Source: Candidatus Levyibacteriota bacterium
GTDB taxonomy: Bacteria > Patescibacteriota > Microgenomatia > Levybacterales > UBA12049
Assembly (NCBI GenBank): GCA_963790825.1
Contig: CAWBPM010000003.1
Span: forward strand, 1-54,352
DNA: 54,352 nucleotides
Reading direction: 5' to 3'
Shown: piece by piece, positions 51,116 through 54,352 of the stretch
Position numbering within the stretch: position 1 is the first letter of the stretch
How the letters are laid out: the number at the start of each line of letters is the position of its first letter
Made by a program: the position numbers and the translations under genes
The notes under the pieces: model-generated
Seen by the model: only the letters and a program-made list of their open reading frames with translations
Told to the model about the DNA's origin: nothing
Database searches by the model: none

Positions 51116-52285
51116 TTATTCCTTCTTTCTTTCCAACTTTATTAGCACTATTTCTTTCATACCAAATATACTAATTATGTATAAAACAGGAAAAACAATA
51201 AACAAGTATCTGGAAAAAATTTGTCCAGAACTTAAAAAGACTAGATATATAACAGCCCAGATCATCAAAACTTCAATTTGAAGATTATGTTTTATTTTCC
51301 GGAAAATGTAGAGAGTAATTGTTGCAAGTGAAAATGTAGTAATAATCGGCCACATTGGAGACCACAGAGGATCCGGGATAACTGGCTGATTACCAAACCA
51401 TACATACCAGCGATCTAAAAAGATTAACGACCATACGGAGAAAGGTAATATCAACTGACTTTTGTGATAGAGAAAAACATATTTTTGTATCCCAAGAAAA
51501 CTAAAAAAAGAATAAGACTTGAAAGAAAAAACACGGATATATGTAAGCAGTAAGATAACAATCGAGATAGGAAACGTAACGGTATATGGAATGATAGGTC
51601 TCCAATACTTGTGTAAAAATAAGAGTCCATACATTGCGGCGACAAGTGTCAAACCGGAAACAAAAAACTTTGTAGAAATAAAAAAACCTAAGAAAATATT
51701 CGTAATAAAAAAATATAACCAGTACTTTTTAGTTTTTAACGCCTTATTAAAAAAATATAAGCAGAATACCACATACGTCAGCTGCATAATATCAAAAACT
51801 GGTACTGCGATAAACTGATTTTTAAATAGAGGCTCGAAACTATACAGAAGAGGTGTAAGGAGCGCAAGAGCTGTAGACGAAAGAATTTGTTTTCCAAGCA
51901 TATACATAGCTAAAATAGAAAGTACCCCAAAAATGACAATAACTATGCTTTCATTATTAAAGAGCAATTCGGAAAGTCCAATTAAGTATTTACCTAGCGG
52001 CGGCGCATCAACATTAATAAGGATAGGACTTACTCCCTTTATATATTGTCCACCAGCGTATGCATATAACATCTGGTCAGAAATTATAATCGGGTGATGT
52101 TTTCGCACATATTGAGAATTATCATATAAATATTTTAAATGCGGTACTTTTTGCCAGTAATTAAAATCCAGGTATTGACTTCTCTGCTGAAACAAGAGGA
52201 GACAAATGTTAAAACAAATGATAAGAAGCATGAGAAGCACTATTACTTTCTCTCTTCTGTGTAGAAAATGCATAGAAGTATCCAT
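51116..52285 (-). CDS. GT-C membrane glycosyltransferase (PMT/ArnT-like)
   Basis: SDQ.LY, DAPPLGKYLIG (PMT HPPLGK-like), STK, RYL; multi-TM. Confidence 0.75.
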   Translation of the reverse strand: MDTSMHFLHRREKVIVLLMLLIICFNICLLLFQQRSQYLDFNYWQKVPHLKYLYDNSQYVRKHHPIIISDQMLYAYAGGQYIKGVSPILINVDAPPLGKYLIGLSELLFNNESIVIVIFGVLSILAMYMLGKQILSSTALALLTPLLYSFEPLFKNQFIAVPVFDIMQLTYVVFCLYFFNKALKTKKYWLYFFITNIFLGFFISTKFFVSGLTLVAAMYGLLFLHKYWRPIIPYTVTFPISIVILLLTYIRVFSFKSYSFFSFLGIQKYVFLYHKSQLILPFSVWSLIFLDRWYVWFGNQPVIPDPLWSPMWPIITTFSLATITLYIFRKIKHNLQIEVLMIWAVIYLVFLSSGQIFSRYLFIVFPVLYIISIFGMKEIVLIKLERKKE

Positions 52286-52300
52286 ATAGAAGCACTTTTC

Positions 52301-53269
52301 TTATACGTGTCGTTTGTGCCACATCCAGGCTGATTTGATAATCGTTTCCAGATCTGAATATTTAGGATTAAATCCCAAAAGGTTTATAGCTTTCGTATTA
52401 TCAGCAAAAACTTTTGGCGGGTCGCCTGCCCGTTTACTCTCAATAACAATCTGAAAATCTTTTCCGCTGACTTTTTTTACCATTTGCAATACTTCCAAAT
52501 TTGAATATCCTTTTCCGGTACCCAGGTTAAAGTAATTACTTTTTTTATTTTTTTCAAAATACTCAATTGCCTGAATATGTCCGGCAGCCAAGTCTAAAAT
52601 ATGTATGTAATCACGGATACACGTTCCATCCGGTGTTTCATAATCATTACCAAAAAGTATAAACGAAGGAAGTTGCCCCAAAGCTGCCTGGATCGCAATG
52701 GGTATAATATGTGTTTCAGGATTATGATCTTCCCCCAATGTTCCATCAGGAAACGCACCTGCTGCGTTAAAATAGCGCAAATTAATATAGTGTATACCGT
52801 AAATTTTTTCATACCAATCAATTATTTTTTCAAACATTAATTTCGTCTCTCCATACACGCTTTCAGGTTTTTTCGATTCTTCCTCTGTTACCGGCAGTTT
52901 CTCAGGCGTTCCGTAGATCGAACATGATGAGGAGAAAATTATCAACGGAATTTTCCGTTCTTTCATAAACTCCAGGAGATTTAATCCTCCCTGCAGATTA
53001 CTACGGAAATATTTATAGGGATTTTGCATGGATTCGCCAGCGTAGGCGTAGCCGGCAAAATGAATAACCGCGTCAAATGTTCCTTCTACACTTTTTCGTA
53101 AGAAGTCAAGATCTAACAGATCACCAACGATAATCGGACAATTTACCGATGTTTTGTGACCATACACAAGGTTATCAAATACTACGACGTCAAAGCTTTT
53201 TTTTTGCAGCTCATGTACCGTCGCACTGCCGATATAGCCGGCCCCACCTGTTACCAAAATCCGCTTCAT
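52301..53269 (-). CDS. galE: UDP-glucose 4-epimerase
   Basis: TGGAGYIGS, GESMQNP.KY, YGETK, LRYFNAAGA, DGTCIRDYIH, NLGTG.G.S, RAGDP. Confidence 0.95.
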   Translation of the reverse strand: MKRILVTGGAGYIGSATVHELQKKSFDVVVFDNLVYGHKTSVNCPIIVGDLLDLDFLRKSVEGTFDAVIHFAGYAYAGESMQNPYKYFRSNLQGGLNLLEFMKERKIPLIIFSSSCSIYGTPEKLPVTEEESKKPESVYGETKLMFEKIIDWYEKIYGIHYINLRYFNAAGAFPDGTLGEDHNPETHIIPIAIQAALGQLPSFILFGNDYETPDGTCIRDYIHILDLAAGHIQAIEYFEKNKKSNYFNLGTGKGYSNLEVLQMVKKVSGKDFQIVIESKRAGDPPKVFADNTKAINLLGFNPKYSDLETIIKSAWMWHKRHV

Positions 53270-53276
53270 AGTACTT

Positions 53277-53282
53277 ATTATA
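53277..53282 (-). promoter_or_regulatory. Leaderless-type -10 of galE
   Basis: TATAAT, 7 nt, ATG 53269. Confidence 0.6.
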
Positions 53283-53367
53283 CAGAATTTTCAATAAATA
53301 AATAGGGATATTTTAAATATTATACTTGGAATGGCTGTAGATTTACCTTACAATATACATATTACAT

Positions 53368-54352
53368 ATGTATATTCTTAATGCATTTCTTCTTTCATTC
53401 GCTTCAGTATTTCTGGCTGAATTTGGTGATAAGACGCAGTTAACCATTCTTCTTCTGACTCACAAAACCAACAGGCACCTATTATTTTTGACAGGAGTAA
53501 TTTCCGGTTTCTTTTTAGCTGATATTTTGGCAGTTATTGCCGGCCAATTTCTTTCTTTCGTTCTTCCTGCTACGTATGTTCGGATTATTGCCGGGATTAT
53601 TTTTATCCTTTTTGGTATATGGTCACTTAGAAAAAGGAGCGGGAAAGCGGAAGATAAAAAACAAATGGGAAATCCATTTGTAACAGGTCTTCTATTTATT
53701 TTTTTGGGAGAGTTTGGCGATAAGACGCAGATCGCGATTGCACTTCTCGCAACGAAATATAATCCTTTCCTCGTCTTTTTCGGAAGCCTTTGCGCGCTTG
53801 CATTAGTTTCCATAATTACCGTGTATTTGAGCAAGTTATTTTTATCCAAAATCAATAAGAAAATTCTAACAATTGCTTCGGGTATATTGTTTATCGTCCT
53901 TGGCATACTCTTTATCACTTTGTCTTTGAATAAGTCTAATACGCAGATTCAAACTTCTCCTTCTTATGCATTACTTTCTTCATCCTGGAAAAATTATAAA
54001 AATCAATTTATTTCTAACGGCCGTGTTATAGATACCAGCCAAAACGGAGACACGACTTCTGAAGGTCAGAGTTATGCATTGCTTCGAAGTGTCTGGATGT
54101 CCGATAAGCCGACATTTGACAGTGTTTGGAATTTTACGGAAGAAAATATGAAGCGTCCGAATGATAATCTTTTTGGCTGGAACTGGGGCAAACTAAAAAA
54201 TAATGCCTATGGTTTTATAGCAAACGGTGGGGAAAATACTGCCAGTGATGCTGATTCAGATATTGCTTTAGCATTAATTATTGCCGCAAATAGATGGGGT
54301 GAAGAAACGTACCTGCAAGATGCCAAAAATATTCTTCATGATTTTTGGATAT
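53368..54352 (+). CDS. GDT1/TMEM165 (UPF0016) transporter fused to glycoside hydrolase family 8; runs off the right edge; absent from ORF track
   Basis: Manual codon-by-codon translation from ATG 53368 with no stop: two EFGDKTQ motifs (53419, 53710), then WKNYK..GRVID..TTSEGQSYALL..LFGW..ASDADSDIALAL...RWG. Confidence 0.88.
   Translation, partial: MYILNAFLLSFASVFLAEFGDKTQLTILLLTHKTNRHLLFLTGVISGFFLADILAVIAGQFLSFVLPATYVRIIAGIIFILFGIWSLRKRSGKAEDKKQMGNPFVTGLLFIFLGEFGDKTQIAIALLATKYNPFLVFFGSLCALALVSIITVYLSKLFLSKINKKILTIASGILFIVLGILFITLSLNKSNTQIQTSPSYALLSSSWKNYKNQFISNGRVIDTSQNGDTTSEGQSYALLRSVWMSDKPTFDSVWNFTEENMKRPNDNLFGWNWGKLKNNAYGFIANGGENTASDADSDIALALIIAANRWGEETYLQDAKNILHDFWI

Follow-up and report, generated by a model that had tools for sequence, protein, structure and literature searches.

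The window analysed here, a stretch of 54,352 nucleotides at positions 1 to 54,352 of contig CAWBPM010000003.1 (C3) of a Candidatus Levyibacteriota genome (G000; 1.46 Mb in four contigs, rated 95.6% complete), ends within a gene that fuses a GDT1-type cation transporter to a glycoside hydrolase family 8 (GH8) domain. The open reading frame (ORF) begins with the ATG at position 53368 on the plus strand and stays open to the last base of the window, giving 328 amino acids (aa). A preliminary description of the window had reported this single frame and placed two EFGDKT motifs at 53419 and 53710, a catalytic glutamate at 54061 and an ASDAD motif at 54241; read directly, the frame and all of these positions are correct. 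It had also recommended extending the contig and running the Pfam families PF01169 (GDT1) and PF01270 (GH8) on the ORF. The contig does continue beyond the window, and the ORF runs on to a stop at C3:55032, for a full length of 554 aa within a stop-to-stop frame of 563 aa. In the window part, PF01169 is matched with an E-value of 3.8e-38 over two stretches and PF01270 with an E-value of 8.5e-29, both far over the curated cut-offs. In the full protein, PF01169 again matches in two stretches (E 1.8e-37; 127.9 bits against a cut-off of 27) and PF01270 covers residues 201-518 (E 3.5e-45; 155 bits against a cut-off of 24). Residues 1 to ~192 make up a complete six-helix GDT1/UPF0016 transporter and residues ~199-554 an endoglucanase-like GH8 domain.

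The transporter module consists of a first repeat with helices 1-3 (53392..53616; 66.7 bits for PF01169 on DNA), a lysine- and arginine-rich (K/R-rich) central loop at residues 88-102 (53629..53673), predicted to be cytoplasmic, and a second repeat with helices 4-6 (53683..53904; 77.5 bits), all on the plus strand. The EFGDKT motifs lie at 53419-53436 (residues 18-23, beginning with E18) and 53710-53727 (residues 115-120, beginning with E115). In the available parts of PMC4067407 and PMC7380456 the UPF0016 family is defined by the motif E-x-G-D-K-T occurring twice, and both the two motifs and the two repeats of the family profile are present here. Alanine mutants of the E, D, K and T positions of the motifs abolish function in Vibrio MneA, according to the same parts of PMC7380456; both motifs of the fusion retain all four residues. 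From residue 3-4 to ~183 the module aligns with free-standing 184-aa GDT1 proteins at 56% identity (P0226 and the protein of G144, the closest relative), and because this alignment runs end to end, the module is complete. Free-standing GDT1 proteins end a few residues past the G-I/V-x-F core of helix 6. The fusion likewise shares with the bacterial two-repeat proteins Vibrio cholerae MneA and Synechocystis SynPAM71, and with eukaryotic Gdt1p/TMEM165, the two motifs, two antiparallel three-helix repeats, a basic central loop and a body of ~185-195 residues. Whereas the members described in the accessible portions of PMC4067407 and PMC7380456 are transporter-only, the fusion has no stop after helix 6 and bears a 360-residue enzyme on what is predicted to be the outer face. 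The term fusion, where it occurs in those portions of the two reviews, refers only to the two-repeat transporter itself.

Among the matches listed, the named proteins most similar to the GDT1 half come from WOR-3 and from several archaeal groups (Woesearchaeota, Nanoarchaeota, Thermoplasmatota and Altiarchaeota), among others. GDT1 is patchily distributed: 22 of the 245 genomes of the order have it, and these belong to a single family. Such a distribution is compatible with lateral transfer.

The N-terminal part of the GH8 domain occupies 53962..54352 on the plus strand, from residue ~199 onward, and the rest, to residue 554, lies beyond the window. The preliminary description had recognised a GH8 module whose SEGQ motif carries the catalytic acid, an assignment that the PF01270 match, residue conservation and fold all bear out. 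The acid is E232 (54061-54063, in TSEGQ), the substrate-distorting aspartate D294 (54247-54249, in ASDAD, which fits the A-S/T-D-A-D signature) and the base D432 (C3:54661-54663, outside the window; placed by alignment to the CelA chain). All three align with active-site positions of the CelA chain, which we take to be E95, D152 and D278 with the corresponding roles, and all three are invariant in an alignment of the fusion with nine free-standing GH8 proteins (A1, 10 sequences). In the 1KWF chain the residue aligned with E232 is a glutamine, consistent with a mutant of the acid. Sequence matches of the GH8 part to PDB entries reach an E-value of 1.1e-27. An AlphaFold2 model was built from an alignment (A3) of 36 GDT1 rows and a shallow set of 6 GH8 rows; an earlier alignment of 79 sequences (A2) had been discarded with the second half of its GDT1 rows misplaced onto the GH8 C-terminus. 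The model has a mean predicted local distance difference test (pLDDT) score of 81.8, and the greater part of the GH8 domain exceeds 90. Its top Foldseek matches are CelA, BcsZ and CMCax (1CEM, 3QXQ, 9B87 and 1WZZ), with template-modelling scores on the target of 0.76-0.84 and a probability of 1.00. With the profile, the (alpha/alpha)6 fold, the catalytic glutamate and both aspartates present, the protein belongs to GH8, and the domain looks catalytically intact.

The fold and the catalytic Glu and two Asp are those of the endo-beta-1,4-glucanases BcsZ, CMCax and CelA, but several features set the fusion apart from BcsZ-type enzymes. It scores 133.6 bits with the NCBIfam BcsZ equivalog NF008305, under the cut-off of 299, and it does not adjoin a synthase of glycosyltransferase family 2 (GT2), so that the cellulose synthase operon setting expected of BcsZ is absent around the gene in G000 and present in 10 of 11 loci of relatives. 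BcsZ-type enzymes are periplasmic and soluble, whereas the GH8 domain of the fusion is membrane-anchored, its anchor being a whole transporter.

The junction falls at about residues 186-195. Helix 6 of the transporter (residues 164-188; 53857..53931, plus strand) is delimited by alignment A1, by the C-termini of free-standing GDT1 proteins and by the AlphaFold2 helix, and is followed by a linker of ~10 residues (189-198; 53932..53961) with pLDDT below 50 at residues 190-193. In A1, the nine free-standing GH8 proteins have a short basic N-terminus and a single hydrophobic helix that aligns onto GDT1 helix 6, and GH8-family similarity restarts at an Asn-Ser-type turn after the helix. GDT1 is therefore kept nearly whole in the fusion, and the signal-anchor is the only part missing from GH8. 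Between helix 6 and the barrel, which begins at residue 199, both hydropathy and the AlphaFold2 model lack a second helix; a lost stop codon or small indel is thus ruled out as the cause of the fusion. Read-through of two neighbouring genes was rejected on the same ground, no second anchor helix or spacer being left, and also on gene order, since none of the relatives examined has GDT1 next to GH8. Short stretches of GDT1 helix 6 resemble the GH8 anchors, with an N-K-K-I-L-like basic start and a G-x-L-F-I-x-L-G-I-like core; this likeness may have served a genuine recombination or made a false join easier.

The GH8 domain is predicted from the charge distribution to lie outside the cell. The AlphaFold2 helices span residues 2-33 (kinked), 37-65, 68-87, 103-130 (kinked), 133-158 and 164-188, and hydropathy, K/R counts and this model agree in predicting two antiparallel three-helix clusters with a cytosolic central loop. 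That loop holds six K/R in residues 86-104 and is modelled as coil, with low pLDDT at 91-97. The loops between helices 1 and 2, 3 and 4, and 5 and 6 carry 3, 6 and 4 K/R (13 in total), whereas loop 2-3 has 0 and loop 4-5 has 2. The positive-inside rule puts the start of the protein and the C-terminal end of helix 6 outside, and because helix 6 ends outside, the GH8 domain would be extracytoplasmic, in the same orientation as with the native GH8 anchor. The predicted topology agrees with the cytosolic central loop stated for the family in the part of PMC7380456 available to us. The earlier proposal of a membrane-tethered enzyme, and an outside position of its GH8 domain, are upheld as predictions by the K/R counts and the six helices.

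The GDT1 part might have lost its transport function and be a mere anchor, or the GH8 enzyme might also be made from an internal GTG or TTG start in the loop between helices 5 and 6, with helix 6 as its ordinary signal-anchor. In-frame GTG and TTG codons do occur before helix 6, near residues 152-154, and a product begun there would resemble a free-standing GH8 protein, with a basic N-terminus and one helix; if the fusion is young, decay of either part may also not show yet. However, the six-helix body of GDT1 is preserved with its two motifs, the nearest free-standing protein being 56% identical, and the fusion contains the sole GDT1 in the G000 genome. By eye, no Shine-Dalgarno-like sequence precedes the internal starts, a weak point in that none precedes the main ATG either. 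We consider both forms of this explanation improbable.

No sign of an assembly error was found at the junction, and residual doubt remains. The preliminary description had named a chimeric assembly as one way in which the fusion could prove false. The 1053-bp region examined is matched only once in the genome, and words of at least 18 nt from positions 53800-54050 do not recur anywhere in the assembly. In tetranucleotide profile, the two 54-kb flanks of the junction agree with a correlation of 0.99, and with the genome mean they reach 0.992, the median for adjacent chunks being 0.986; the G+C content stays at 0.35-0.41 throughout, even across the junction; a chimera between organisms was rejected on this composition. 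It nevertheless remains conceivable that two separate genes were joined in silico, by a chimeric join or a collapsed deletion. In favour of such an artefact are the single occurrence of the architecture, the separate genes of all relatives, the peptide stretches shared by helix 6 and the GH8 anchors, which would be the easiest place for a false join, and the dependence of the junction on the assembly. On the other side, the join is in frame and leaves exactly six helices with the correct topology, a simple indel or stop-codon error cannot delete a whole anchor helix together with an intergenic spacer, the 95.6%-complete genome lacks a junction repeat of 18 nt or more, composition is the same on both sides, and the gene sits on a 418-kb contig in a four-contig assembly. 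An artefact is therefore, in our judgement, a rather remote prospect.

We looked for the same architecture in 5.8 billion protein clusters, 1.84 billion representatives, 245 genomes of the order, 401 genomes of the phylum and 160 loci. The protein cluster of the fusion has one member, on one contig. In a word-indexed search with the full protein (8000 candidates scored), the query alone carried both Pfam families among the 120 proteins listed of 691; the other 119 were GH8-only (PF01270), 356-427 aa long, 51-60% identical and covering 61-71% of the query. A word-indexed search with residues 1-200, restricted to lengths of 304-970 aa, returned 10 proteins, with GH8 only in the query, and a search for shorter proteins returned 2756 GDT1 relatives, the best 120 of which are 159-202 aa long. 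In an exhaustive phmmer search of the 1.84 billion representatives (7191 matches), only the query spans residues 1-554 among the best 150. The ESM Atlas gave no usable match and was uninformative.

The genomic searches agree. Of the 22 genomes of the order that contain GDT1, G000 is one, and in the other 21 the gene is free-standing, in stop-to-stop frames of 68-249 aa. Over-cut-off GDT1 occurs in four genomes of the 401-genome phylum sample, G000 included, and none of the others is long. With a junction-spanning query, 151 of the 160 metagenome and genome loci had GDT1 and nine had GH8, and none had both within 3 kb; nor was GH8 found within ~1.5 kb of GDT1 in any of the 10 GDT1 loci of related genomes. 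Longer GH8 proteins, with N-terminal extensions of 85-245 residues, were considered as further GDT1 fusions and rejected, all 10 scanned being GH8 only; of four such proteins that were read, P0123, P0126 and P0129 have an extension rich in proline, serine and threonine and P0136 a different hydrophobic N-terminal region. No published GDT1-GH8 combination was found in a literature search confined to main texts (supplements such as Table S1 of PMC4067407, which lists the architectures of 149 members, lay outside it), and no paper was found that unites the Candidate Phyla Radiation, cellulose synthase and endoglucanase.

Thus the architecture, which the preliminary description did not know from elsewhere, was seen nowhere else in the protein, genome and literature searches. 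That description had also held that two separate genes in related genomes would tell against the fusion. Every available relative does have two separate genes, but with the nearest at just 56% identity this speaks against conservation of the fusion and not against its existence here. For the same reason, neither conservation of the fused state nor purifying selection on it can be demonstrated.

The closest relative, G144 (86% complete), is of another genus in the same family. It has a free-standing 184-aa GDT1 gene on contig 23, with a convergent gene after it, and a 394-aa GH8 gene on contig 10; each is 56% identical to the corresponding part of the fusion. The GH8 gene of G144 is flanked by a gene for a 206-aa membrane protein rich in proline and threonine (P/T-rich) and one for a cellulose-synthase-like GT2, and the same arrangement is found in G034 and G005. 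Across 11 other GH8 loci, taken from relatives and metagenome contigs (among L003, L004, L211 and L029-L037), the cellulose-synthase-like GT2 lies directly downstream of GH8 in 10, and the eleventh ends at a contig edge. The P/T-rich single-pass membrane protein precedes GH8 in all three loci read for it (L003, L004 and L211), and in some proteins, such as P0123, a part rich in proline, serine and threonine is fused to GH8. Two relatives have GT2 proteins with 51% mutual identity; with the relatives' GT2 as query, no orthologous synthase was found in G000, where the best match, at 35% identity, is encoded on another contig and carries a fused glycoside hydrolase family 26 (GH26) domain. Judged by gene order, the GH8 of G000 has left its usual operon.

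GH8 is attached to membrane modules in other proteins as well. In the broad group examined (P0124, P0137, P0142, P0152, P0169 and P0204), it is fused C-terminally to PMT_2/PMT (GT-C-like), LPG_synthase_TM and a Ser/Thr kinase, whereas in one 1684-aa protein GH8 comes first and GT2-PilZ-TPR follows; P/T-rich anchors are a further kind of partner. Among the representatives, proteins of ~860-950 aa are found many times; the two scanned, P0124 and P0137, carry PMT_2, and PMT_2-GH8 proteins are ~870 aa long. G000 itself encodes a second GH8 in a 731-aa protein (C2 ~238764-240959, plus strand; L013:397-2592), at residues 376-689 behind a polytopic N-terminal half without a Pfam match. The ORF that follows it, of 245 aa, looks glycosidase-like by eye. 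The 35% match to the relatives' GT2 is an 880-aa protein (C2 ~387544-390186, minus strand; L016:346-2988) that combines a cellulose-synthase-like GT2 (PF13632/PF13641) with a C-terminal GH26 domain (PF02156, E 7.1e-16). Together with the GDT1-GH8 fusion, G000 holds three proteins that pair a polytopic membrane module with a glycosidase. As in the PMT_2-, LPG_synthase_TM-, kinase- and P/T-rich-GH8 proteins, the GH8 domain of the fusion is C-terminal and comes right after the last transmembrane helix, a layout that the 731-aa protein shares; unlike in those proteins, the N-terminal partner is an ion transporter, seen once. Because GH8 is joined to so many unrelated membrane modules, anchoring fits the fusion better than a specific link to metals.

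As the preliminary description had noted, the gene is divergent from galE beside a large glycosylation locus. A GalE-like NAD-dependent epimerase gene (52301..53269, minus strand; PF01370, E 3.7e-53) is the last gene of a minus-strand glycan-synthesis locus and is separated from the fusion gene by an AT-rich divergent intergenic region of 98 bp (53270..53367). Next to it lies a gene for a 389-aa multi-helix membrane protein (51116-52285, minus strand) with no Pfam match at E <= 0.01, which by its position, between a Wzx-type flippase gene and the GalE-like gene, could be a polymerase or ligase. Beyond it the locus contains the Wzx-type flippase, GT2, glycosyltransferases of families 1/4, a DegT aminotransferase, a methyltransferase and a second epimerase. 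Downstream of the fusion, past the window, are genes for a 115-aa membrane protein of the Phage_holin_4_2 family (C3:55126-55473, plus strand; L002:3259-3606; E 1.4e-35) and, convergently, for a protein with a P/T-rich linker and a C-terminal dockerin (C3:55475-56527, minus strand; L002:3608-4660). No manganese riboswitch was found upstream of the fusion gene with Rfam, where the only match was a chance-level microRNA (E 0.26), and a promoter scan of the intergenic region gave 8 sites, not over the 9.2 +/- 2.8 of shuffled sequences.

This setting invites the thought that transport and hydrolysis are functionally coupled: the transporter might deliver Mn2+ or Ca2+, or consume H+, beside the tethered enzyme, and thereby affect its metalation, activation or local pH, or link glycan processing to the neighbouring locus. 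Coupling is favoured by the physical connection of the two modules through a ~10-residue linker and by the position of the gene beside a large glycan-synthesis locus. The dockerin protein encoded convergently downstream also favours coupling, since dockerins bind Ca2+. We know of no metal requirement for GH8 catalysis, which counts against it, as does the transcription of the fusion gene in the direction leading away from the glycosylation locus. According to the available parts of the respective papers, eukaryotic Golgi members of GDT1 supply Mn2+ to glycosylation enzymes (PMC7380456), and the related TerC proteins have been proposed to metalate exoenzymes during secretion (PMC10550928). The comparative evidence points the other way, with GDT1 and GH8 together in none of the 160 loci, no GH8 near GDT1 in the 10 related genomes, GDT1 rare in the phylum (four of 401 genomes) while GH8 is common, and GH8 fused to many unrelated anchors. 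Neither conservation, gene neighbourhood nor known GH8 chemistry thus lends support, and we regard coupling as unlikely. A stronger form would hold that the fusion is selected and not neutral, a GDT1 exporter being hard-wired to an exo-enzyme such that cation or proton flux at its outer mouth controls the activity or stability of the glucanase. By analogy, such a protein would do in bacteria, as a single polypeptide, what Golgi Gdt1/TMEM165 does in supplying lumenal glycan enzymes with cations, or what TerC does in assisting the metalation of secreted enzymes. We hold the selected fusion, and equally its analogy, to be slightly less likely still.

The preliminary description had proposed a glycan-processing enzyme coupled to metal transport and possibly serving the glycosyltransferase genes next door. 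The single protein, the intact-looking modules, the predicted outside position of the GH8 domain and the architecture seen nowhere else stand. Coupling to metal transport finds no support, the 21 other GDT1 genes of the order being free-standing and the two genes of G144 lying on different contigs. The proposed service to the neighbouring genes fares no better: the usual partner of this GH8 subfamily is a cellulose-synthase-like GT2, and not GDT1 or an O-antigen-type locus.

The reading that we favour, as reasonably probable, is a real, young and lineage-specific fusion in which the GH8 anchor was swapped for another, the glucanase being kept on the cell surface with both modules functional and independent. 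Deletion or recombination would have joined the 3' end of a complete gene for a GDT1-type cation/H+ antiporter to a BcsZ/CelA-like GH8 gene, at a point just past the former GH8 signal-anchor. GDT1 helix 6, running from inside to outside, would now act as the anchor, holding the (alpha/alpha)6 barrel on the outer face of the cytoplasmic membrane by the ~10-residue linker. The modules keep their defining residues and would most likely work independently, the transporter exporting or exchanging Mn2+/Ca2+ against H+ and the glucanase cutting beta-1,4-glucan outside the cell. Several points weigh against this reading: (i) the fusion is a singleton among the protein clusters; (ii) the collections searched hold no relative above 56% identity; (iii) the GH8 of G000 is without the downstream cellulose-synthase-like GT2 seen in 10 of 11 other loci, and because this usual partner is missing, its substrate in G000 is uncertain; (iv) the junction is known from the assembled sequence; and (v) the independence of the two modules is an assumption.

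The fusion is a new architecture built from two well-known families, seen once and unconserved, and for that reason it says little by itself about GDT1 or glycosylation biology. It offers a ready-made construct for asking whether GDT1 tolerates a large domain on its outer face and whether a tethered enzyme responds to local fluxes of cations or protons. Should reads confirm the junction, the fusion would be a clean natural case of the last helix of a polytopic transporter becoming the signal-anchor of an exo-enzyme. It also adds to a pattern in these small-genome bacteria of joining glycosidase domains, GH8 among them, to any membrane protein that is available.

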